Source of the DNA: Dictyostelium discoideum
Lineage: Eukaryota
Length of the DNA: 64,000 nucleotides
NCBI GenBank assembly: GCA_000004695.1
Contig: CM000151.3
Coordinates: forward strand, 3,488,001-3,552,000
Direction of reading: 5' to 3'
Under the pieces are notes generated by a model, which saw nothing but the letters and a program-made list of their open reading frames with translations, did no database searches and had not been told where the DNA came from. Positions 5,480 to 56,569 of this stretch are shown here, in pieces. How positions within the stretch are numbered: position 1 is the first letter of the stretch; every line of letters starts with the position of its first letter. The position numbers were made by a program, and so were the translations under genes.

Positions 5480-6770
5480 AATTTTTCTAATCCATTCCTT
5501 ATGATCAATAAGAGTTATATCTTCTTCATTTGAAATTGATTTTAAATATTTTGTTAGATGGAATAAGACATTATCACCATACTTTTTAGCATCTTTAATT
5601 TTAAAAGGTGGAACATGTACACCATTCTTTGGATTCATTGCAAAGTTTTTGGAGAGATCATCAACATGTAAAGTATTTTTCATACTAAAGAATTTACCTA
5701 AATGTTGATGTTTCCAAATTACTTCCAATGCTTTTACATTATGTTTAATTTTAGTTCTCTCTTTACCATTGATGGTTCTATAGGTTGTTACCTTAAACAT
5801 TAATGTTTGATCCATTACAAAACAAATTTTAAAACGTGGATTAGTTAATAATCCCAACTCTGTTAATTTAATTTCAATCCATTTCCAACTAGTTTGAGAC
5901 CAAATTCCAATATCATAATGTTGATAGGATTGTACTAAAAATTCTTCTAAATGTGGTCTTTTCATATCTATATTTATTTAAAAAAAAAAAAAAAATTAAT
6001 TATTTATTTTATTTTATTATATTATTTTATTTTATTTATTTTATTTTATTTTATTTTTATTTACTTTCAACATCTTGATCTTTAAAATCTAAAATTGTAT
6101 GATCTAAATCTAAAACTAATAATTTTTTATTTGGTCTTGGGTCATTAATTAAAGAGATATCATTTGAACGTTCAATCATTGCAAGTAATTGATTTTTATT
6201 TTTTTCAATATGAGAGATTTCATCAGAATCTGGGATATAATCAAATTCGAAATCATTGAATACCTCATCGGTATCACCACTTGTTTTTGGAACGTCAGCA
6301 ATAATATTTGACTCTGGTGTACCCATCATAATGATACTATGATTATCTTGAATTGATAATGATTCTATTATCATTTCATCAGTTGGTTGTTTACCTTTTG
6401 ATAATCCTAAAATTTTTTGTCTCTTTGATAATACATTTGTCATTGTTTCCAATTGTCTCTTTAAATCAAAAACTGTTGAACTCTTTGAAATCAATACTTT
6501 ATATTCTTTACCATTCCATTTGGTTTTTATTGTAATTTTTGAATTTTCTTCATTTATTATTGTTGTTGTTGTTGTGGTTGTTTTTGTTTTTAAATCAGAG
6601 TCATTTATAATATTAGTTGTTGTTGTTGTTGTAGTTGTAGTAGTGGTATTAGTTGTAGTGTTATCATTTGTGTTATTACTATTAGAATCTGTTGTTGTTA
6701 TTATACTATTTATTGTTGACTCTGTTGTTGTTGGTGGATTAGTTGTTGAGGATGAAACTATTGTATCCAT
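5474..6770 (-). CDS. UBLCP1 homolog (ubiquitin-like domain-containing CTD phosphatase 1). Two exons, 6770..6065 and 5967..5474, with an AT-rich intron 6064..5968 (GTAAAT...ATATAG).
   Basis: Exon 1 encodes a Thr/Asn-rich N-terminus, a UBL domain (KWNGKEYKVLISKSSTVFDLKRQLE...IMMGTP) and an FCP/SCP-type DxDxT motif (LVLDLDHTIL). Exon 2 (MKRPHLEEFLVQSYQHYDIGIWSQTSWKWIE...) aligns with human UBLCP1 [29 protein letters not shown]. The phase-1 junction gives VE-N-MKRPH in frame. Confidence 0.85.
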
Positions 6771-20571: not shown

Positions 20572-21483
20572 TTAAATGGATGATCCACTTCCTGTACCAC
20601 TTCCACTTGCACTTCCACTATTACTACTTCCACTATTACCACTTCCACTATTACTACTTCCACTATTACTTCCACTATTACTACTTCCACTATTACTACT
20701 TCCACTATTACTGCTTCCACTATTACTACCAGATGCACTACCAGATGCACTACCAGAAGCACTACCAGATGCACTACCAGAGGATGTTGAACAACCACTA
20801 CCAGATCCATAAAAATCTAAATCAACACTAACACCACATTGATTTGTATTGCCAATATATTGTTTCATTGCTGGTGAAGTCCAACCACCAAATTCATAAA
20901 AAGCGGTATCGGAAAAAGATGGATTATCATCATAATGAGCATACCAAAGTGGATATTGACTTAGAGTTGATAAATTACCAACAGTTTGTGGCCATTCTCC
21001 TTCACTACTGTATACACCTACTAGAACACCAAGACCTTGTGCAGTTTCAACAGCTTCTTGAACATAATCGGCATTATCACTCTCTGCTCCCCAACAACCA
21101 TCACATTGTTCAACATCAATCCATAACATATTGAAATTGATACCATCGGATTTTAAACTAGAAACTAAACTTTGAATTGCACTTGATGCTGGATAATTAC
21201 CATCACATTCACTACATAAAAATGCATAAAGATCAATATTATCGAAACCAGCTTGTTCTGCTGCCGATACAACAGATGAAATATTTGAATTATATTGACC
21301 ACCTCCTGACCACACTTGAATTATAACTCTTTGATTATTACTAGCTAAACATGACCATTGAGAATCTGAAATTCCAACTGAAATCTCTGATGAGAAATCA
21401 ATGGCACATTCACCACTGACGAAAATAACAATAGATAAAATAATACTTGATATTATTAAAAAAATATTATTCATTTTATTCAT
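20572..21483 (-). CDS. Secreted GH25-type (Entamoeba/Chalaropsis-type) lysozyme-like protein with a C-terminal (Gly-Ser-Ala/Asn)n tail
   Basis: Signal peptide MNKMNNIFLIISSIILSIVIFVSG. The GH25 fold pattern is present: VIIQVWSGGGQY...AGFDNIDLYAF, MLWIDVEQ, PLWYAHYDD, GGWTSPAMKQY, VDLDFY. Tail is SGSASGSASGS...SNSGSSNSGS. Confidence 0.55.
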   Translation of the reverse strand: MNKMNNIFLIISSIILSIVIFVSGECAIDFSSEISVGISDSQWSCLASNNQRVIIQVWSGGGQYNSNISSVVSAAEQAGFDNIDLYAFLCSECDGNYPASSAIQSLVSSLKSDGINFNMLWIDVEQCDGCWGAESDNADYVQEAVETAQGLGVLVGVYSSEGEWPQTVGNLSTLSQYPLWYAHYDDNPSFSDTAFYEFGGWTSPAMKQYIGNTNQCGVSVDLDFYGSGSGCSTSSGSASGSASGSASGSASGSNSGSSNSGSSNSGSSNSGSNSGSSNSGSGNSGSSNSGSASGSGTGSGSSI

Positions 21484-22355
21484 TTTTTAAAATATGTATA
21501 AAAATAAAAATAATTAAAATTTGGGTGTGATTTAAATAGTTTTTTTTTTTTTTTTTTTTTTCAAAAAAAAAATTCTAAAATATCTAAAAATATCACAAAA
21601 TATCAAAAAAAAAAAAAAAAAAAAAAATATCTAGAGAAAATTTTAAAAAAAAAAAATTAATATATTAAAATTAAAATTTTAAAATATTATTATTTAAATT
21701 ATCCTAAATTTTTAATTATTTTAAAACAAGTCCCTGGTGACTTTACCAATATTAAAAATAAATTTTAATTAAAAAATAATATTTTTTTTTTAGTTTTAAA
21801 ATTTGATTTTCTTTTTTTTTTTTTTTTTTAATAAAAATCGATGGAAAATTATTTTTAATATAAACAAAACCAATTTTATTAAATTAAAAAAGTAAATTTT
21901 GTTAAATAGTTTGAAAAAAAGGTGGAACAATTGTAACATGTTCAAATGTTTCATTTATTATAATTTTTTTTTTTTTAATATTGATTAATCACTTTTTAAC
22001 TATTAAATCAAATATTCAGTAATTTATAGGATTATAATCCTACACATACCGAATTTCTCAAATTCTGTAGCTCTATTAGACATAGAATTCAAAGACCAAG
22101 AATCTAGGCAATCAATAAATCCAAAAGAAGAGAAGAGACAATAAGAGCTAAGGATACATCCCTCAAATTCATTTTGAAAAAAAGATACTATTATTTTTAT
22201 TGTTATTTTTTTTTTCAGTTTTAAAATTAAATCAATATTTTTTTTTTTTTTTTTTTACCTGTGATCAGACCTTCAAGGAATGTCCTTGTGTCTTTTCGGC
22301 GGTGTTTGTTAAACGGTTTTATTTTTATTATTCAATTGTATTAAATTTTTTAAAC

Positions 22356-22430: not shown

Positions 22431-22435
22431 ACTAC

Positions 22436-25400
22436 TTAAATTGGAAGAGGGTTCGGAGCTGCTGGGGTTTGCCAGGCTTTGTTGAATTTGTATTTGTGAA
22501 GATCTTGATTGGTGTTTTTTAGTATTGCTTCGTCGTGTTTGATTTTCTTTAGTGTGATGAATTTTTCAGTTTCGATGAGATTTAGTAATTCTGTTTCTAT
22601 GACCTTTTGCTCGAATTTTGGCTCTGGTTTGCTTTCATCAGTGTTGAACAATTTGTGACAGATTATCTTCCATAATTGGTGTGCTATTATTCCTATGAGA
22701 TTGGGGAAGATTCTCTCAGTTCTGTTGTATTTTGATATGTCTAAGGTATCCATTGACCATCTTTGGATTTTGATGAATGATAATTTGTTAACTGTTGATA
22801 TGATGGTTTTTTCAATATCTAGGATATCTTGGCATAGAGTGAAGAGGTGAGAATAAGGGTCTCTGAATAGGTGGCCACAGATCTTGCATCTGGTGTCTCT
22901 TTCGTGGTTGATACCTGGAAGTGATCTTGAGAAGAATCTGAAGAGGGTGTTTCTACCTTTTTGGTGAGAAATGCTGTTGATGTTTATGAATACTTTGGGT
23001 ATTGCTGTGTTGTATCTCACCGCCCATAACTTCTGCCATTCTGTTCTTCTTGGTGTTGGGTGTCTGTCTTTGATCATGAGTTCGTAAATTTCTTTCAGTT
23101 TTAGTGGTTCATCATTGTCGTTTCTTATACAGTCTGGAAGTTCATTTATCTTTGGATGGTTTTGGTAAAATTTGACTCTGAATACACCCCAGTGTCTGCA
23201 CATATCGTTGAGGGTTGAAGTGTGGGCTTTTTTCTACTTAATTGCTCCATGTACCATTCTTGTAAGGTATTGTTGTTGTTGTTGTAGTTGTTATGGAGTA
23301 GCCTGTTCATGTACCAGATTTTGAATGCTATATGTCTTAGTTCTATATCCCATAATTTTATGCCTCCTTCTTTCCAATCTGCATATGCTCTGTCTATTTT
23401 CATCATAGTTTTGTATTTTCTCTCTTCTGTATATGTATTCTTAACTGAGGAGAATAAGAACCATCTGGTCATGTTATTGATTTCCTCAATTTGTTCTTCA
23501 TTTAGATTATCCATGTATTGATGGTATGTTAATTTGGATAGAACGTATGTTTTGAGAATTGTCATCTTTGCCTTCATCGTTATTGCTTGTGATTTCCATT
23601 TGATTAGATTGTTTTTCATTTCTTGGATTAAAGTGTTGTATTTTGAATTTAAACCTGTTTTGGTGAAATTGAGGCCAAGATATCTTTCTGGGACTGTACT
23701 CTCTTGGAATGGTAGATCGTGTGGTTTATCTCCTATTGCTATCATTACTGTTTTCTCTTTGTTTAACGATGATGACGTTGCTGAGCAGTACTTTTGGATT
23801 TTAGTATTAATTTTCATTAGTTCTTCTGTGGAGTTTGTAAAGGTTGCTATGTCGTCAGCAAATGCAGTGAGTTTTAATGATTTGGAATTTGGTAGAGTGA
23901 AGCCTTTGATTGTATTATCATTGATGATATCTATTAGAAGTGGTTCTAAAACTAGAGCAAAGATTGTTGGTGATATTGGGTCTCCTTGTTTTGTTCCTGT
24001 TCTGATTGTTATTCCATTGACTAAAAAGTCGTTGATCTTTATTTTGTTTTTAGTATCTTTGAGTAGGTTTAGTAGGATCGCTGTGAATTTTGGGGGGATA
24101 CCAATATGCTCTAATGTTCTTGTGATACTCTTGTGGCTGATTGAATCGAATGCTTTGTTAAAATCGTAAAAGGTAATGAGTGTATTGTTCTTTCTTTTGT
24201 TACTTATTTCTATTACTTCCTTCATGATCTGAATATTGTCTTGGATGAACCTGTTTGGAACAAAGCCGTTTTGAAATTTGTTGATAATTTTACTGGTGAT
24301 ATCTAATAATCTACTGTTGAGAATTTTGCTTAAAATTTTGTAATCTGTATTGAGAAGGGTGATTGGTCTTCTATTTGAAATGTTTAGTTCATCTCCTTTT
24401 TTGAATATTGTTGTTATTACTCCTTCTTTGAATTTTGTGGGGATTTCTTTCTTATTTGTGAGGAGGTCGTTGAAAGCTATAGTCAATATTCTTGCTATTG
24501 AGTTGATGTGGTACTTGTAGAATAGTGCATTGATACCGTCTAAACCTGGAGATTTGTGGATACTTGAAGTTTTGATTGCTTTGGTCACTTCATGTATTCT
24601 TATCGGTCTGTCTATCTCGAGTTTCTTGATTAAATCAACGTCTACTTCCCATTTTTCTAATAACTTCTTGTGGGTTTCTTCGTTATCTTCTTTCTCTTCA
24701 TATTGATCTTGATAGAATTCAACAAATCTTTTTGCTATGTTCTCTTTATCTGATATGGTCTTATTATCTTTATCTTTTATTTGGAATATTGATTTATCTT
24801 TGGCTCTGGATTTAAGGATACTTGTGAGGTATTTGCTTGGTGTTTCTTGATGCAGGTGGAGTTTTAATTTTATATCCCATGCTTTTACCTTTCTTTCTTC
24901 TTCTAATATTCTACTTATTTCTTCATTGAGTTCTTTTCTCATCTTTGGAATGATATCACTATTTCCAAGTAATTTGTGGATTACGTATTTTCTTTTGTTC
25001 TTTTCTTTCTTTATTTTGTTTTGTTCTTTTTTTAAATAATCTCTGATGACATTATTTTTAAATTTCGTCCATTCCTCCACTGATTTGATCTTATCTTTGT
25101 TCTTACTGATTAATTCTGATAACCCATCATGTATATGTTTGTTGTTGAGAATTTCTTTACATAATGTCCAAGGGAGTCTTTCTAGTTTGGTTGTTGTTGT
25201 TGTTGTTGTTGTTTCTCTGTTGGTTTGTATTGTGATTGTGATGGGAAAGTGATCTGATTTGTTGAATACTGTGTTGTGGACTACCAGTTTTGAATTTTGG
25301 TTTAGTAGTGTTGGATGACAGTAGATTCTATCTAGTCTCTTCATTGATCTTGGAAATGTTGGAGTGTTTTCTTCAATACCAGTATCTAGTAGCATGTCTT

Positions 25401-25881
25401 GGTCTATTATTTTACGTAATTCAGTACCGAAGAAGCTGTTGCAATCGTGGTTGTTATTGAAGTCGCCTGCTATTATTTGATGGTTGATTGAATTATATTT
25501 TTTAAACAGTGATTTTGAGTTGATTATGAAGGTGTTTCTTTCAGATATAGTCGCTGGAGCATTGATCAATAATATGTTGATAGAATTAAAGGAATTGTAT
25601 TTAATTGATAGTATTCTACCATCATCGTCTTTGAAGTTTATTGATATGTGGCCTTTTCTTGTATCTCTATTTTCTATTGCTATGCCAGTTCCTTTACCTG
25701 AACCATGATCTATTCTTTCAAAGTTGAACATTGTTTTGTGGTGGTTGAATCCATTGAAATTAGTTTCAGTTAGGAGTGTTAATTGAGTGCCAATTCTTTT
25801 TATCGTTTCTTCTGTTTTATTCTTAGCGTTGGTTGATTGATTACCTCTGCAGTTCCATAGTAATAATTTTAATTGTTCCAT
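22436..25881 (-). CDS. TRE3-like ORF2: apurinic-type endonuclease + reverse transcriptase + C-terminal CCHC-like domain. It is split by an apparent frameshift at 23146-23203 into a 911-aa ORF and a 255-aa ORF.
   Basis: RT motifs FYDFNKAFDSISHKSI, QGDPISPTIFALVLEPL, AFADDIATF. C-terminal CKICGHLFRDPYSHLFTLC. The endonuclease N-terminus starts LLLWNCRGN. Confidence 0.7.
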
Positions 25882-25950
25882 TATTTTCTAATACTACTGG
25901 CAATTGGAAACTTGGTACCATTGCTTGTAGTAATTTTATTGATAGGTTTT

Positions 25951-25985
<35 letters not shown>

Positions 25986-26762
25986 TTTGTTTAGGTTGTT
26001 GATTGTTGTATTGCTTGTTGGTAATTGATGTGTGATTGTTGTTGGTGTGGTTGTTGTTTGTGTGGTTGTTATTGGTGTGGTTGTTATTGGTGTGGTTGTT
26101 GATGCATTAGTTGTTGGTGGAGTTGATGGTATTGGTTTAGTTGTATTTGTAGTTGTTGGTTGTTGATTTTTATTACTTGTGTTTTTTTTTTTTCTAACAT
26201 CTCTTATTTCTTTATTGTTATATTCAGAGATGAAGGCTCTTATTGGATGCTTACTACCTTTTATAGCATCAATGTTTGTTTTAATGATTGAGATATCATC
26301 TTCTTTGTTAAATAATAGAATGCATGAATATCTAATCACATCTGGTAGCATTACTATGTTGCATTCATCTATTAGTAATGGCTCCAATCCCCAGTTTTCT
26401 TTTACCATTTGATTGTTTATTTTTTTTATTATGTTTTTTGTAAATGTGTAAAAGTGGACATAGTGATATCCTGGGGTGTAAAGTATGAATTTTTGCAGTG
26501 GGAAATCTTCATACTTGAAAGTGCTGTAACACTCGTGTAATAATGTGAATTTTTCTTTTAGTATTCTACCAAATACTGTTATACCTTTTTGTCTTCTGAC
26601 AATGTTAAGAGTACCATTAACTATGAAATTATCTATTAATTTTGTTGAATTACTATTTAATTCCAAGGTATGTGGGTAGAATAACCTTATTTGAATAGTT
26701 TTTTTATTTAACTCTTCTTCGCCTAAGTTGAGTTCACCTTTAAGTTTATCGAAAAAATTCAT
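25881..26762 (-). CDS. TRE3-like ORF1 (293 aa) with a Thr/Pro-rich C-terminus
   Basis: First ORF of the element. Its stop overlaps the ORF2 ATG (TAATG). Confidence 0.6.
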
Positions 26763-27060
26763 TTTTTTTTTTTTTTTTTTTTTTTTAGATTATTTTTATT
26801 ATTTTTTTTTTTTAATTATGTGTTTATATAAAAATATTTTTGATTTTTATTTTTATTTTTTTTTTTCTTTATCGTTTATTCAGATCTATTCTTATTCCCA
26901 ATCCAAGGATTGAAGGAATTAGTGTGTAGAGTAGATAGATTGAATGTAGTTGATGTTAGATTGATGGATATGTTTTTCTGTATCTAGTATCCGTTTGATC
27001 AACTGTAGGCTTTTAATTTTTTTAAAATTAAATCAATATGGAATTTAATTCTTTAAAATA

Positions 27061-27071
27061 GGAATCGAACT
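27061..27071 (-). promoter_or_regulatory. External B box (ex-B box, GGTTCGAnTCC-like) about 30 bp downstream of tRNAi-Met copy A
   Basis: Minus-strand AGTTCGATTCC. A downstream ex-B box is typical of Dictyostelium tRNA genes. Confidence 0.55.
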
Positions 27072-27100
27072 AGCGACATATTCTGTATAATTTTAAAATT

Positions 27101-27172
27101 TAGCTTCTCTAGGTTTCGATCCTAGGACCTCGAGGTTATGGGCCTCGCACTCTACCCCTGAGTTAAGAAGCT
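27101..27172 (-). tRNA. Initiator tRNA-Met (anticodon CAU), copy A
   Basis: A1:U72, C33 in the loop CCCAUAA, T-loop GGATCGAAACC and discriminator A. Near-identical to the human tRNAi-Met core (GGCCCATAACC...GAGGTC...GGATCGAAACC...GCTA). Confidence 0.85.
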
Positions 27173-27492
27173 GTCGATTCAAGCTAACGAATCTTATGAT
27201 TTTTCTGTAATAAAGTTACTCTATAAAATTAATAGATATTAAATATGCATATTACATTACTAATTATAGTTGACACACATTTAAATAATATAATAATAAT
27301 AATAATAATACTGTCAACTCATTATAAATAATATAAATACTAAAGAATAATTTTATAAACAATATTGAATATTATAAATATAAACTAATATTAAATAAAG
27401 ATAACAAAGTATTATTCAATTATATAATTATTAATTATATATTTATAAAGCTAACAAGCTTTATTACATTTCATATCAAATAACTAAATGTT

Positions 27493-27646
27493 GTCTGAAG
27501 TGTTCTAAAAAAAAAAAAAGGTAAACCAACCCCTCTTTTAGGGACCCTGTAAAAAAAAAATAAAATAAAATGAGATCTAGCATCTCAAGGAGAAGCAAAT
27601 AATTGCGTTATCCAATTCAAAAAAAAAAAAAAAGTCTGAAGTGTTC
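27493..27646 (+). mobile_element. Solo insertion of a roughly 100-bp A-tailed retro-module flanked by a perfect 13-bp target-site duplication GTCTGAAGTGTTC (27493-27505 and 27634-27646). It is either a SINE-like element or a TRE5 C-module-only copy.
   Basis: Structure: TSD, A13, GGTAAACCAACCCCTCTTTTAGGGACCCTG..GAGATCTAGCATCTCAAGGAGAAGCAAATAATTGCGTTATCCAATTC, A15, TSD. Other copies lie at 36352-36457 and 29805-29903, behind TRE5-like ORF ends. Confidence 0.7.
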
Positions 27647-27950
27647 CGGGATGTTTATGGTCATGAGTTTCGATTTCCAGTTGTGACTGAATTTTTCGAG
27701 TCTTCTTTTTATTGATGCGGTCCTATTGATTGACTCTCGGTTATCAGTGCATCTTAGTTCTTGACGTAGTTGCTTTTCTACTATCTTTCTTGTTCTATCC
27801 CATTCGGCATCTCTCGCTTTTTTGATTTTATGAATTATTTGGTTCTCTGTTATTATTGTAGTGTTATCGTTGAATTTTATTTGGTTTCTTCTGTACCATA
27901 TCGATTCCATAATGGCTGTCTTTTTTTCCAAGATATTCTAATTTGGAGAA
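27647..27950 (-). mobile_element. Fragment of a TRE5-like ORF2 3' region, interrupted by the module insertion
   Basis: The encoded peptide ...AEWDRTRKIVEKQLRQEL...EKFSHNWKSKLMTINIPEHF is homologous to the ORF ends at 29877-30200 and 45729-46247. Confidence 0.5.
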
Positions 27951-30202: not shown

Positions 30203-30625
30203 CACAAATGTAATAAAGCTTGTTAGCTTTATAAATATATATAATTAATAATTATATAATTGAATAATACTTTGTTATCTTTATTTAATATTAGTTTATA
30301 TTTAATATTCAATATTGTTTATAAAATTATTCTTTAGTATTTATATTATTTATAATGAGTTGACAGTATTATTATTATTATTATTATTATATTATTTAAA
30401 TGTGTGTCAACTAAAATTAGTAATGTAATATGCATATTTAATATGTATTAATTTTATAGAGTAACTTTATTACAACAAAATCATAAGATTCGTTAGCTTG
30501 AATCGACAGCTTCTTAACTCAGGGGTAGAGTGCGAGGCCCATAACCTCGAGGTCCTAGGATCGAAACCTAGAGAAGCTAAATTTTAAAATTATATAGAAT
30601 ATGTCGCTAGTTCGATTCCTATTTC
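30203..30625. repeat. Inverted-repeat arm B, partner of 27056-27477
   Basis: See arm A. Confidence 0.8.
30508..30579 (+). tRNA. Initiator tRNA-Met (CAU), copy B
   Basis: Identical to copy A in reverse complement. Confidence 0.85.
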
Positions 30626-30659
30626 ATTTATTCAGAATCGAACTAGCGAGAACTTATAA
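30610..30659 (+). promoter_or_regulatory. Pair of inverted ex-B boxes (CTAGTTCGATTCC ... GAATCGAACTAG), 31 and 66 bp downstream of tRNAi-Met copy B
   Basis: A perfect 12-bp inverted repeat separated by 16 bp. Arm A retains only the first box, because the TRE3-like element begins after it. Confidence 0.5.
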
Positions 30660-45540: not shown

Positions 45541-45566
45541 AAAATATCAATTTTAGTAAAAAAAAC

Positions 45567-45637
45567 TCCCCATTCGGGAATCGAACCCGAGGTACCAGTG
45601 TGAAAGACTAGAGTGTTACCGACTACACCAATGAGGA
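45567..45637 (-). tRNA. tRNA-Glu (anticodon UUC)
   Basis: Minus-strand TCCTCATTGGTGTAGTCGGTAACACTCTAGTCTTTCACACTGGTACCTCGGGTTCGATTCCCGAATGGGGAG. It has a 7-bp acceptor stem with one G-U pair, a CUUUCAC anticodon loop and a T6 terminator. Confidence 0.8.
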
Positions 45638-45682
45638 ATTATATGGAAATATTTGATTAAACAAGAAAATTTAATTATTTTA

Positions 45683-46457
45683 TTTATATGAACACCATCC
45701 AAAATTAACTCCTGGCCAAAAAGAAATAATGATCAAAATGAATAGCAAACACCTTCCATTTAAAGAAATTAAAAAAATAATAAACATGGAAGGTAGAGAC
45801 CTATTATGGAGATACACACAGAAAGCACTACCAAAAATATACAACATGCCATGCCAACAGTATGGGGAAGATGAGACTTCAGAACATATATTCTTCAACT
45901 GCAAAGCCCACATCAAAAACACACAAGAAATCTTCAACTACACATTAACCAAGTGTGGACACACCTGGAATGTTAAGATTTTAAACCATCTACAAATTGC
46001 ACTAATATCCAATTTAATAGCTATTATATTCGAAAAAATTTGGCACAAAAGAAACAAACTCATCCACGATGAAATAGAAATAGTAATTCATAGACAACAA
46101 GTCATACGTGAACTAATTAAAACACAAAGAGTTGCATGGGATAGGACACAAGCGGTTATAAACAAAACATTAAGAATCAAATCAAAGCAATGGCCAGAAG
46201 AACAAAATAAATTAGACTCATTAATCTCTAAAGTTATTACAATTTAACAGACAATGGAACTCACCTCTTCACGCAATAGCACTTCCCAAACATCTCAAAA
46301 AATACAATAATTCACTCAGTACTCTCTATAAATGAAAAAAAAAAAAAAAAAAAAAAAATATAAAAAAAGATTTAGAAAAAAATTTGGACAAAAAAGATGT
46401 TTTAATCAAAAGTAATAATACATTCAAAATTGCGTTATCCAATTCAAAAAAAAAATA
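45683..46457 (+). mobile_element. 5'-truncated TRE5-like element (ORF2 C-terminal Cys-His region, then 3' end ...CAAAATTGCGTTATCCAATTC(A)10) whose 5' end is about 46 bp upstream of tRNA-Glu
   Basis: ORF 45729-46247 (CQQYGEDETSEHIFFNCKAH...) is homologous to the ORF2 C-terminus at 22436-23203 and to the fragments at 27617-27931 and 29877-30200. A short TSD-like TAATTATTT flanks it. Confidence 0.65.
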
Positions 46458-47484
46458 ATTATTTAATTTAATATTCAAAAGAAATAATTATTAAATTTCA
46501 ACAATTTACAAATATTAATCAAATCTCTTCTTTCAAAATCACTAAATTAATAATTTACAGTTTGATATTTATTCAAACTCTGTATTCATAAAAACTCAAT
46601 TATCAATTTACATATTACAAAAACCGATTAACATAATTATAAAAATCTAAAATTAATATCTAAATAATATTACAAAAATTTCAGTACAAAATTAAATTTT
46701 ATTTAAAATTCTATTAAAATAAATTAAAAATTGTATAAATAAATAAATAAATAAATAAAACTAAAAATTAAATTAAACTAAATAAATACCATATAAATAA
46801 ATAAATTAAAATTAGTTATATTCACTGCAGCTTTACATTTTGTATTCAATAGCTATTGGCATAATTAGGAGATGTGATAAAGTCAGAATTAGATAAGGTC
46901 ATTCTATAGAAAAAGGATCGAATATTCCCTTTTGATATAATGGTCATCTCTGTAGATTATAACCAAAGTAGGCTATTACATTTGGCGACATTGCTTGTTA
47001 GAATCAACAACCAGCCCAAGTAAAAAAAAAAAAAAAAATATAAACAAAGTTTAATAAAAAAAAAAATATAAACAAAATTTAATTATTAAATTACATTGTT
47101 AATATTAATAAGTTTTTAATAAAATTAATAGTAATTGTAACAAGATCTCAAAAAAATATCTTGTTAATACTAATATTTATTTAATTTTATGAAATGTTCT
47201 AAACAGAACATTTAAAAAATAACTATTAATATTGAATTGATAATTCAATATTAATTATTACTAACTTAATTCATTTTAATAAATTGTTTCATTTTATATA
47301 ATAAACTCACTAAACACAACTAAACAATAATTCAAAAATAAATAATAATAATTTAGAATATAGTTTTGTTTCAACATTTTGTTATGACACATACAATTCA
47401 GAAAATAATAATAATTTATTTTATTGTTTTGTTTAAAGGGGTTTTCTCCCGTTGTAATTTAATTTTAAAATTAAATTTAATTTT

Positions 47485-47526
<42 letters not shown>

Positions 47527-47639
47527 AAATTAATTTGAATTTCACAAAAGTTTTCATAACAGATATTAGATACCAGATATTAAAAATGCCACACACAAAA
47601 TCACCATATAAAATAATAATTAAATTAAAATAATATAAT

Positions 47640-50600
47640 ATTGTAGTTTAAATTGGATCTAACCCTATCGGCCGAGGTTGGAGTAGTTAATAGATTTGAG
47701 TTCGCTCAAATCTAAGGACTATAAAAGGAAACTAGGTTTCCAATTCAACCTCAGTAGTAAATATATACAAACAATAAAAACACGATAGGGCTACGGTCAT
47801 TAATTAATTTTGTGTACATTTATTTCTTAAATAATTAATCATTTTACTTTAATAATAGAATAAATAAATAATTAAATTTTATTAAATAATTTATTTTAAG
47901 AGAATGTCAACTAATAATAACGAAGATATTGATAATGATGAATTGCAACAACAGGATAATGAGGAACAACAGCAACAACCACAGGTATCAACATTCAATG
48001 AACAGCAACGTCAGATAAGGGAACAGCAGCAGGTAATAGATAAACAAAATCAACTTCTTCAACAACACATTCAATTAATAAATCAACAATCTCAACAACA
48101 ATTGAATAATCATACGACACCACCATCATCACCCAACATTACAACACCAATAACTTCAGCAGCAATAACCAACACAATAAAGAAATCATTAGGAAAAATT
48201 AACACTGATGATACCGACCACCAGTTGTTACAGTAATGATTACAATTAAACAATAATAATTAAAATAATAATTTATTTAGTTTTATATAATTTAGAGTTT
48301 TCATTCGAAACTTCTCGGTCGAAAATTGTAAAAACTAAAAAAAAATAAAGTTAGTTCTGATTGACCTTTACAGCATTCTTATAATATTAATTGTTTTCCT
48401 TTGTTTACTAAGACAAAAACATTAAAGCATAACCCAAACACACTCAAACTCAAACACATATCAACAATTGATGGTAGAGCTATTTTAGCAGACGTTATAT
48501 TTCCAAATCAATTACCAATTGGTATTCTTGGAATTTATGCACCAGCATCAAATGATACCATCAAAAAGAATTCATAACAACTTCACTACAAACACTTCTC
48601 CACAACCACTCAACAAACCCAATACCAAACCAATCCCAACATGTATCTATTATCGCAGGCGATTTCAACTGTATCCACAACGACAATTCACTATTAGACG
48701 ATATTATCCAATCCTACACATACCAACACCATCTAATTGATCAAGGTGAATTTAAAAACACTCCAACTCATACACATGGCAACAGATTAGATAGAATATA
48801 TACTCATTACAATAGAATAGACCCTGAAAATTTATACACAAGTCCACCAAATTCCATCTTCATTATCAGATCATAATCCAGTATCAACAACAATTTCTTC
48901 ACCTTTTCAAATAAATAAACATAAGAAAAGATGGATATTATCACCTGGTACTGCAAATGACCATGAAGCAATCAATATTATCAATCATTTAATAACTAAT
49001 CACAATAACACATCAATCAATCAATTTACAAATTGGTCAAAAGTAAAATCAAAAATTATTAAAACTCTAAAAAACTATCAATATAACAAAGACAAACAAA
49101 CTCAACGTGCAAAACAAATACTATTAGAAAAAGCAGCAAAATTTAAACATCTTGAAAAACAATGCATCGCTGAATACAATATTATATGTAACAAAAACAA
49201 ATTACATCAAAACCACACAAACAAATAAAGGAGAAATACCTATAAGTATCTATCAGCAATACTAAACAAAGATCAAAAGATGCAAAAATTACCTTCTGAG
49301 AATACTTCCCTTCATCGTCAACATCAACCAAACTGGTTTCGTACCCTACAGATTTATCATAGACAACATCATCAACATCAATGAATTAATCAACTACCTC
49401 AAATCTAAAAACCTCCCTGGTAACATCACACTATTTGACTTCTTTAAAGCATTTGATTCTCACGATAGTATTAAAAGAACATTAATTCATATTGGTATAC
49501 CAATAAAATTAATAAATATAATCCACAAGCTTTTATCTGACTCACAAGCAAAAATTTCAATTAATGGTAAAACGACTAGAAAATTCGATATTAAAAGTTG
49601 TGTAAAACAAGGTGACCCAATCTCAGCCACTTTATTTGTAATTGTAATTGAAATATTAGCAAGAACAATAAATGCAGACAATACAATAATTGGATTACCA
49701 ATTTCACCCAATCCACAAATTAAAATCAAATTTACCCAATTTGCAGAAGACTCTACAACATACAACATCAACTACGAACAACAACAACAATCAATCAAAC
49801 ATTTCGATAATTTCTGCGCTTCAACATCATCATCATTAAATTTTGACAAAAGTGCAATAATAGAAATCAACCCCCACAAAATCACTGATAAACACTTAAT
49901 AAACAACATTCCACAATCAAAAAGAATACCAATAACCAAAAAAGATCAATCAGAAAGAGTTCTTGGCTATTTCTTTAATCATAATGGTTTACATAGGAAA
50001 TTACCAGAAACAATGAAAACACTGATCAAATCATTAGTACTATGGAAAACTAGTGGCACAACATTAAAAACAAAAACAACCATCATAAACACTTACTCAC
50101 TATCACCAATAACATATTTATCATACCTTGAAGAATTTACAAAAGATGAAGAAATTCAAATTAATAAATTAATCTCATGGTTTATGAATTCTCCCGCAAA
50201 TTCTGAATCACCAACTCTCAATACCAATTCCATTGAAAACAACACATCAACCATCCATTCACGTGCAAAAATACCTTTGATGTGTTATGATAGATCATTA
50301 AAACTATTAAAAGAAGGTGGTTGGGGTATGTGGAATATACAATTACGACAAGCTGCTCAAAAGATTTGGATATACAACATATTTTTACAAATGCATAAAT
50401 CTGCAAACAATTCAATATACATGATAAGTTGGATGGATCAAATCATCAACAAGTCAATCTCTTCTCCATTCCTTATAAAAATCAAAAAAGAATGGGAAAA
50501 CTATGCAACTCAAATTAGATATCTAAAAGATAAAATTCAAACCCTACAACCAATATTAATAAAAAACCAAACCACTCAAACATTAACCACAAATAATATT

Positions 50601-51650
50601 TCACTACCACCAACACTCAAAGAAATCTACTCGACAATACTCAACAATCACCAATGTAAATCAAAAGACTATATAGGAAAGAAATATTCAGATCTACTTC
50701 TTACTTCGCACCAACAATCAATATAACTATTATGGAAATACACATACGACCAACTATTTGTCAAAATTCAAAAATTAAAAGATCCAAAAGGCCGTGATAC
50801 AATGCAAAGATTCCATGCTAGATGTCTTCCGATTAATCATCTACACAACAAAGTTTGCTCCATTTGCAACAATGAAATGAATAATGATCCCTATGGTCAT
50901 TTGTTTTTCAATTGTCAGCACACAATCAACTTCATAAACCACGACAAATTAAAATATTTTATATATAAAAATTGCAATGGAAACAAAAACTGGTCACTAA
51001 CAAAAAACCAAACAACAAAATTATACACACTCATTTATAAACCACAAACAAACAACAAAGCATTTAAACCAGATCCAACTATCAATATTAATTTTCATTT
51101 TGCAGAAAACGCACAATATAAAAAATACAGGTTCAACTGGAATTATATAAACACAAATCTTGATCTAGTCAGAACACATGCATATTGGAACATAATCTCA
51201 TTAGTTATTCACCAAATATGGATATGGTTATGCAAATCATTATTTGACATCAATATAACTCAATCAATTGACAATTGGAACAACCAAATAAACAACACAA
51301 CACTAGATTATGATATATTAAAATCAAAATGGCACAAGCTAATAAGATTGGAATATTCCAGAACATTATCAAACTTTAACCAATACTCAATTAAAAACAA
51401 CCTCACAAAAACTCAAAAAGAAACCCAATGGCCCGAAACCATCAAAAAATTTAAAAAAGAATGGAGCATAAACACAAACCAATGCTGAAACCAATTCCAA
51501 CAATTACACCACCAATTAATTATTAATTACCTAATCTAAAATAACATACCATTTTAAATTCACAAAAACTAAAAAACCTAAAATAAATAAATAAAGTACT
51601 AATTGTATACTACAATAGTTTATTTATATCAAAAAAAAAAAAAAAAATTA
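47640..51650 (+). mobile_element. Degenerate TRE3-like non-LTR retrotransposon. ORF1 (47904-48236) is intact, but ORF2 is broken by many stops and frameshifts. It ends in A16, about 50 bp from the 3' end of tRNA-Phe, tail to tail.
   Basis: The frame-shifted RT region reads LFDFFKAFDS...QGDPISATLFVIVIEIL...FAEDSTTY (YADD degraded to FAED). The ORF2 C-terminal pieces (MKTLIKSLVLWKTSG..., EGGWGMWNIQLRQAAQKIWIY, CSICNNEMNNDPYGHLFFNC) parallel the ORF2 at 22436-25881. Confidence 0.65.
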
Positions 51651-51654
51651 AAGC

Positions 51655-51672
51655 AGAGATCGAACTTGCGAT
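51655..51672 (-). promoter_or_regulatory. Ex-B box (GCAAGTTCGATCTCTGC) about 30 bp downstream of tRNA-Phe
   Basis: A GTTCGATC match to the B-box consensus in the typical ex-B position. Confidence 0.5.
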
Positions 51673-51697: not shown

Positions 51698-51771
51698 TGC
51701 CTCAGGCCGGGATCGAACCAGCGACCTTAAGATCTTCAGTCTCACGCTCGTACCAACTGAGCTACTAAGGC
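51698..51771 (-). tRNA. tRNA-Phe (anticodon GAA)
   Basis: Minus-strand GCCTTAGTAGCTCAGTTGGTACGAGCGTGAGACTGAAGATCTTAAGGTCGCTGGTTCGATCCCGGCCTGAGGCA, very close to canonical eukaryotic tRNA-Phe (CCAGACTGAAGATCTGG core). Confidence 0.85.

Positions 51772-52441: not shown

Positions 52442-56569
<4,128 letters not shown>

Follow-up and report, generated by a model that had tools for sequence, protein, structure and literature searches.

A full-length TRE3 retrotransposon with a split ORF2 downstream of a tRNA-Met gene in Dictyostelium discoideum

The TRE3 elements of Dictyostelium discoideum are non-long terminal repeat (non-LTR) retrotransposons with described subfamilies TRE3-A to TRE3-D (Szafranski et al. 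1999; Glockner et al. 2001, as cited in PMC5006619 and PMC5911963). They insert 40-150 bp downstream of tRNA genes, and the second open reading frame (ORF2) of TRE3-A is in the -1 frame relative to ORF1 (PMC5911963). We analysed one such element in a 64-kb stretch of the D. discoideum genome (assembly GCA_000004695.1, contig CM000151.3, positions 3,488,001 to 3,552,000), referred to below as the window. All coordinates are window positions and the element is read on the minus strand. It is highly probable that this locus is a full-length copy of the known TRE3 retrotransposon in which ORF2 has been split by the contraction of a run of seven A residues to six (A7 and A6 hereafter), and that the copy is most likely non-autonomous. 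The element itself is already known and its anatomy is that of an ordinary, nearly intact TRE3. The main value of the analysis lies in a correction, namely that the split ORF2 is a minority single-base indel and not the architecture of the TRE3 family. The anatomy and boundaries of the element, the position and nature of the indel and the minority status of A6 were read directly from the data.

ORF2 is split by a one-base contraction of an A-run

The TRE3 copy spans 27019-22239 (4,781 nt, minus strand) and consists, from 5' to 3', of a 5' untranslated region (UTR), ORF1, a UAAUG overlap, ORF2, an internal A tract, a 108-nt module and a terminal oligo(A). ORF1 (26762-25881) is an intact open reading frame of 293 amino acids (aa) and is 98% identical to AAD43058.1, a record described as 'gag [Dictyostelium discoideum]'. 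The end of ORF1 and the start of ORF2 overlap in UAAUG, which fits the published -1 frame of TRE3-A ORF2 (PMC5911963). The first part of ORF2 (25881-23146, 911 aa) encodes an apurinic/apyrimidinic endonuclease (APE) and a reverse transcriptase (RT), as indicated by the Pfam matches Exo_endo_phos at residues 8-211 (2.5e-9) and RVT_1 at residues 494-738 (2.3e-36). The second part (23233-22436) is in the -1 frame and holds the C-terminal Cys/His (CCHC) region, with an ATG-delimited ORF of 255 aa at 23203-22436. This ORF contains CKICGHLFRDPYSHLFTLC, a CX2CX9HX4C motif seen in the sequence; no zinc-finger model of Pfam matched it. A Forkhead match to the same ORF was below threshold (18.4 bits against a cut-off of 27) and was regarded as spurious. 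The domain order APE, RT and Cys/His is therefore kept, with the last domain in the -1 frame in this copy. The first-pass annotation of this DNA, made from the sequence alone, had proposed a TRE3-type non-LTR element downstream of tRNA-Met, with a 911-aa ORF2 followed by a 255-aa Cys-His ORF in another frame. Both proposals hold on the minus strand, the former on the basis of ORF layout, domains and position. A blastn search of the element against the window found no second copy, the sole match being the tRNA flank repeat, and an exact-sequence look-up of the three ORF products in the protein collection found none present.

The site of the frame change was located by comparison with homologues. 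A query spanning the junction identified relatives with one continuous frame (P0001, P0027, P0004, P0006 and P0007). Such relatives, for example EQISNSKYISIGLREMVDRWKDFRNNF, are collinear with the frame of the 911-aa ORF (frame A) as far as ...EQLSRKK and with that of the 255-aa ORF (frame B) from AHTSTLNDMCRHWGVFRVKF. This switch in collinearity places the break in the A-run at 23233-23228, within AGT AGA AAA AAG CCC (23238-23224); the alignment of seven copies and the cross-species alignment show A6 here and A7 in intact copies (frame-change site, 23233-23227). A -1 shift leads from frame A to frame B, which is open from 23233 onwards, directly past a TAG at 23236-23234 and upstream of the ATG at 23203, and which is collinear with the continuous homologues P0001, P0004, P0006, P0027 and P0042. 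The last 28 codons of the 911-aa ORF, past 23228, are an out-of-frame read-through. The frame change thus lies upstream of the ORF overlap at 23146-23203, where it had originally been placed. An A_AAT_TTT sequence at 23174-23168 was considered as a slip site and rejected, since homology already follows frame B upstream of it (LNDMCRHWGVFRV compared with LREMVDRWKDFRN).

Addition of one A to the run in the window yielded a single ORF2 of 1148 aa with no other stop. A search with this restored protein retrieved P0042, a Logan protein of 1147 aa with 99% identity along its whole length; the two agree exactly at the restored junction and are 99% identical in the C-terminal 316 aa. The family consensus at the site is AGT AGA AAA AAA GCC (A7). 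The contraction from A7 to A6 moves the CCHC domain into the -1 frame, and the ORF2 protein encoded by this copy is truncated after the reverse transcriptase, with all other parts of the element intact. We infer that this copy has most likely lost autonomous activity.

The length of the A-run was then compared among copies and species. DNA of six D. discoideum loci (L001-L006) was taken from a second, independent assembly (GCA_054883475.1). One of them, L006, is orthologous to the window element: the two are 99.3% identical across 5.1 kb and share tRNA-Met and the set of ORFs. The remaining five, L001-L005, are independent insertions with different 5' truncation points, located behind tRNA-Lys, Ser, Ser, Thr and Asp genes. 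At the DNA level, A6 was found in the window, L006, L001 (DDB_G0271026, P0011) and L003 (DDB_G0268528, P0013), and A7 in L002, L004 and L005. At least eight D. discoideum gene models read ...EQLSRKKAHTSTLNDMCRHW... unbroken (P0053, P0054, P0057, P0058, P0059, P0062, P0063 and P0065), and P0042 has the same reading, as predicted from the restoration of A7. The equivalent stretch is also unbroken in P0055, P0060 and P0064 from D. citrinum, P0043 from D. cf. discoideum, P0027 from D. dimigraforme, P0004 from D. firmibasis and P0007 from Tieghemostelium lacteum. P0006, a D. citrinum relative, and P0001, from another D. discoideum subfamily, are likewise continuous. In D. dimigraforme DNA the spacing at the site is 12 nt, which equals the A7 form. 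Among the D. discoideum loci examined, A6 was counted three times and A7 at least nine times. The consensus form of ORF2 is continuous, and the split is a real minority 1-nt contraction. A two-ORF arrangement common to the family, which would have spoken against a mutation, was looked for and is not what these copies have: most D. discoideum copies and those of five other species are continuous. As for the choice left by the first-pass annotation between an inactivating indel and a programmed frameshift, the data favour the indel and do not support the programmed frameshift.

Two further observations concern the same run. The AX4 gene models DDB_G0271026 (L001, 6001-6887) and DDB_G0268528 join the two frames by an artificial intron (...ICADTG|INELPDC...); both of these models over A6 copies are annotation artefacts on retroelement fragments. 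In a D. citrinum locus (L007, about 6325-6340) the site reads AGC followed by A7, 2 nt less than the intact spacing, which shifts the reading into a third frame. The run appears to be indel-prone in more than one species.

Alternative explanations and the recurrence of A6

We considered several other explanations for the two-frame layout. Homopolymer length errors are common in long-read assemblies, and the real locus might have a continuous ORF2. However, the orthologue L006, which comes from the independent assembly, has the same A6 and the same ORFs of 911 and 255 aa, indicating that the frameshift is real and not a sequencing error. For the remaining two A6 loci, the sequence in the AX4 models P0011 and P0013 is ...SRKKPTLQPSTICADTG..., in agreement with the DNA of L001 and L003. 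An error at this position is consequently very improbable. We give equally little credence to the idea that the 255-aa ORF is a separate third gene (ORF3) with its own start codon at 23203. An ATG-initiated ORF does exist, but homology to the continuous ORF2 can be followed in frame B for 10 codons upstream of this ATG (LNDMCRHW compared with LREMVDRW and similar sequences) and joins frame A at the A-run, and most copies have no division into ORF2 and ORF3. A further alternative is leaky recoding, in which a -1 ribosomal slip or the addition of an A by RNA polymerase would keep A6 partly functional. In the A6 allele, frame 0 contains the heptamer A_AAA_AAG at 23233-23227, which is exactly where frame B opens, and the predicted product of a -1 slip on it is the intact protein of A7 copies. 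The copy is otherwise intact, and A6 recurs in three independent insertions, with no variation in the other homopolymer runs. Against this, no stimulatory stem-loop or pseudoknot was predicted in the 120 nt 3' of the heptamer (z = +0.55, with 139 of 200 shuffled sequences folding as well), and the minimum-free-energy fold leaves the first 38 nt or so past the heptamer unpaired. A7 copies have the same flanking sequence, so there is no sign of selection for frameshifting, and A7 is found in the majority of copies and across species. Neither among the copies nor in five other species is the two-frame layout conserved, and the slippery heptamer is present only in A6 copies; any contraction from A7 to A6 in this codon phase creates it automatically. 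Slippage at A_AAA_AAG is moreover far weaker in eukaryotes than in bacteria. We therefore regard it as unlikely that A6 is partly functional by recoding, and as no more likely that an A6 sub-lineage has been mobile through low-level -1 ribosomal or transcriptional slippage restoring the ORF2 protein in cis. If true, A_AAA_AAG would represent a newly arisen recoding site within a non-LTR retrotransposon.

A one-base contraction with loss of autonomous activity remains our preferred reading, and several points weigh against it. The sequence at A6 has the textbook form X_XXY_YYZ in the correct phase, and a -1 slip on it would yield the intact protein. The copies were sampled through protein clusters and incompletely, with 15 of 55 cluster members covered. 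The other nine A6-A12 runs in the ORFs never vary (0 of 31 run-by-copy observations) whereas the focal run differs in three of six copies, which by a hand calculation gives a Fisher's exact p of ~0.003, or ~0.02 with 12 loci as the denominator, in a sampling biased by how the loci were found. This pattern hints that A6 RNAs have themselves been retrotransposed, so that A6 may not be fully inactivating. The three A6 insertions together with the invariance of the other runs make random slippage after insertion a poor explanation for the recurrence, and A6 RNA is the more likely source of these insertions, whether A7 elements mobilised it in trans or rare slippage rescued it. One version, a sub-hypothesis on the origin of A6 that is compatible with a contraction as the best explanation of the split, is that RNA from a single A6 source was copied at least three times by the ORF2 protein of A7 elements, with A6 copies as non-autonomous passengers. 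In D. discoideum, the ORF2-less TRE5-A.2 is mobilised in trans by TRE5-A.1. Such a trans-mobilised lineage would account for A6 at three different tRNA genes with no variation in other homopolymer runs, and the window element and L001 share a synonymous G at 22610. However, L003, which also has A6, lacks the G at 22610, no other variant is common to the A6 copies, and the third run length in D. citrinum L007 suggests an indel hot spot at this site. We consider the single-source lineage possible, at somewhat less than even chances. A distinct A6 clade was rejected, as all copy differences except the one synonymous site shared by the window element and L001 are private. Alternatively, the site may be a specific hot spot for slippage, as supported by the same D. 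citrinum run. The recurrence of A6 in three independent insertions is the small question that remains in this well-studied family.

Ends of the element and its insertion beside tRNA-Met

The ends of the element were defined by its target-site duplication (TSD) and by the alignment of 3' ends. An exact 20-nt repeat flanks the element, with the 5' copy ATATTGATTTAATTTTAAAA at 27039-27020 and the 3' copy, read as (A)TATTGATTTAATTTTAAAA, at 22238-22219 directly after the terminal oligo(A). This duplication sets the 5' end at about 27019. The 5' UTR accordingly occupies 27019-26763 and begins with (A)AATTAAAAGCCTACAGTTGATC. An independent copy that retains its 5' end, L011, begins at AGCCTACAGTTGATC directly after the poly(A) of another element. 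With the 3' ends considered below, the element runs from 27019 to 22239; both ends of the span first assigned to it, 22431-27056, were misplaced. Its 5' end is 81 nt from the 3' end of tRNA-Met and 41 nt past an external B (ex-B) box, on the same strand as the tRNA, and these distances fit the published range of 40-150 bp (PMC5911963). The likely course of events is target-primed reverse transcription, by which the element would have inserted 81 nt past tRNA-Met in the orientation of the tRNA and generated the 20-nt TSD.

Other copies share these features. TSDs of 13-18 nt abut the truncated 5' ends in four of five other copies, and none was found for L005. The 5' truncations of other copies map to window coordinates 26355, 24892, 23792 and 23304. 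The hallmarks of non-LTR elements are thus all present, with a terminal oligo(A) of 12-19 nt, variable 5' truncation and TSDs of 13-20 nt. Genes for tRNA-Lys, Ser, Asp and Gly precede four other copies on the same strand, at distances of 36-120 nt. L008 is about 240 nt from its tRNA-Pro, and in L002 and L004 another element is located between the copy and the tRNA gene. More complex arrangements were also seen. In L011 (5560-5810 and 9336-9400), the 5' UTR is interrupted by a segment of about 170 nt repeating the 3' end of the neighbouring TRE; L011 is cut at the window equivalent of 23407 by an inverted copy of that same TRE, within a nested TRE cluster behind tRNA-Phe, and is hence uninformative on the A-run. 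In L002 (5402-5772), two element 3' ends stand in tandem and the second copy starts within about 45 nt of the oligo(A) of the first. This second copy is truncated at the window equivalent of 23304, as is L001.

The conspicuous A-run near the stop codon of ORF2 proved to be internal. It is 63 nt long (22427-22365, minus strand) and begins 8 nt after the stop codon (TAA GTAGTAGT), not 5 nt. It had been taken for an A tail of about 65 nt, but it is succeeded by a 108-nt module (22364-22257) that is nearly identical in eight copies and then by the true terminal oligo(A) of 18-19 nt (22256-22239), with the TSD directly after it. All eight aligned 3' ends have the same order of TAA, GTAGTAGT, A tract, 108-nt module, oligo(A) and unrelated flank, with GTAGT in place of GTAGTAGT in L003. 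The A tract is 63 nt in the window, 34 nt in the orthologous L006 and 29-40 nt in other copies; the terminal oligo(A) of other copies is 12-19 nt. The difference between 63 nt in the window and 34 nt in L006 (from 6640) is either a strain-level length polymorphism or an assembly difference. For the last 47 nt or so of the module (22257-22303, minus strand), folding predicts a stem-loop around CAAGGA-CAU-UCCUUG (z = -2.29, with 3 of 200 shuffled sequences folding as well). On this folding prediction, the stem-loop at the end of the module is a candidate recognition structure for the reverse transcriptase. L010 (7847-8611) and the protein P0001 represent a different TRE3 subfamily with an ORF2 that is only about 60% identical (P0046 cluster). 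The last ~780 bp of this subfamily, comprising the C-terminal part of ORF2, the A tract and the 3' module, are 97% identical to the window element. Judging from this alignment, the two subfamilies have a mosaic or recombinant 3' end in common.

The gene targeted by the element is transcribed by RNA polymerase III and was identified by ARAGORN as tRNA-Met(CAT) at 27172-27101 (minus strand), one of five tRNA genes in the very AT-rich window. It has an inverted twin at 30508-30579. The tRNA has A1:U72 and the T-loop AUCGAAA, which we take to be textbook features of a eukaryotic initiator, and the label of initiator tRNA-Met in the first-pass annotation was reached again on these grounds, presumably correctly. 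An ex-B box, AGTTCGATTCC, is situated 30 nt downstream of the gene at 27071-27061 (minus strand) with one mismatch to GGTTCGAWTCC. The motif has six matches in the window against 0.35 expected, and AGTTCGATTCC is present 3' of both tRNA-Met genes. The two genes lie in inverted-repeat arms at 27056-27447 (arm A) and 30232-30624 (arm B). As noted before, there is a second, inverted ex-B box on the side of arm B; this copy, GAATCGAACTAGCG, is at 30635-30648 (plus strand), outside the element, and forms a 14-bp hairpin with 30605-30618.

The relation of the insertion to this palindrome differs from that proposed at first, when the 5' junction was equated with the end of arm A and the insertion was suspected of having removed an ex-B site. 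The arm ends at 27056 and the element starts at about 27019, leaving 36 nt of host DNA, TSD included, between them. The TSD is intact, which means that the insertion deleted nothing, and the absence of an inverted ex-B box from arm A is for this reason independent of TRE3. In agreement with this, the reconstructed empty site of arm A contains no counterpart of the inverted ex-B box, and beyond CCTATTT its comparison with arm B gave just low-complexity AT matches and no homology. The TRE3 insertion has no part in the asymmetry of the arms. With its ends corrected, the element is not adjacent to the tRNA palindrome, and no ex-B box was lost through its insertion.

Neighbouring sequence and comparison with known systems

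The window contains other traces of retroelements. In the spacer between the palindrome arms, an ORF of 104 aa (27617-27931, minus strand) is similar to the extreme C-terminus of yet another ORF2 of TRE type, with 30-33% identity to P0051 and P0052, and T/A runs come after it. It is probably a relic of another retroelement in the interval that separates the two tRNA-Met genes. A degenerate second non-LTR element is found at 45690-51660 (plus strand) between tRNA-Glu (45565-45638, minus strand) and tRNA-Phe (51698-51771, minus strand). Its ORF fragments are 88-99% identical to P0048 and P0049, which belong to a different TRE family with about 33% identity to TRE3 ORF2. The element terminates in an oligo(A) near 51657, immediately ahead of the ex-B-like AGTTCGATCTC of tRNA-Phe. 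Its position and orientation, with boundaries that are approximate, fit a TRE5-type element of about 6 kb inserted ~50 bp upstream of tRNA-Glu in the opposite orientation. Two host genes, both on the minus strand, were also noted; that at 20572-21483 encodes a GH25 lysozyme-like protein with a long Gly/Ser-rich tail and that at 52442-56569 a protein kinase of 1375 aa.

The TRE5 elements offer one comparison for the TRE3 copy. TRE5-A is of the same superfamily, and ORF2 of the TRE3 copy is about 33% identical to that of the TRE5-like element in the window. The 3' UTR of TRE5-A is modular (B and C modules, PMC5911963), and the TRE3 copy resembles it in having a short structured end module followed by oligo(A). 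By analogy, the 108-nt module may serve a role like that proposed for the TRE5-A modules. The two differ in their insertion preference, as TRE5 targets sites ~48 bp upstream of tRNA genes and lies in the orientation opposite to theirs, and the ORF1 of TRE5-A is unrelated to that of the window element.

With respect to the A-run, the A6 heptamer is in phase and its -1 product is the functional fusion, in which it resembles the A_AAA_AAG sites of E. coli dnaX and insertion sequence elements as well as the X_XXY_YYZ sites of retroviral gag-pol. Unlike programmed sites, it is without a stimulatory structure and is the by-product of a deletion in a minority of copies, and the intact TRE3 family needs no frameshift at this run. 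The closest match is TRE3 itself. The window element has its two ORFs, with ORF2 in the -1 frame to ORF1 and the APE, RT and zinc finger order, its short UTRs and oligo(A) end, and its insertion downstream of a tRNA gene or ex-B box in the orientation of the tRNA. It departs from this description by the 1-nt contraction of the A7 run that splits ORF2 in this copy.

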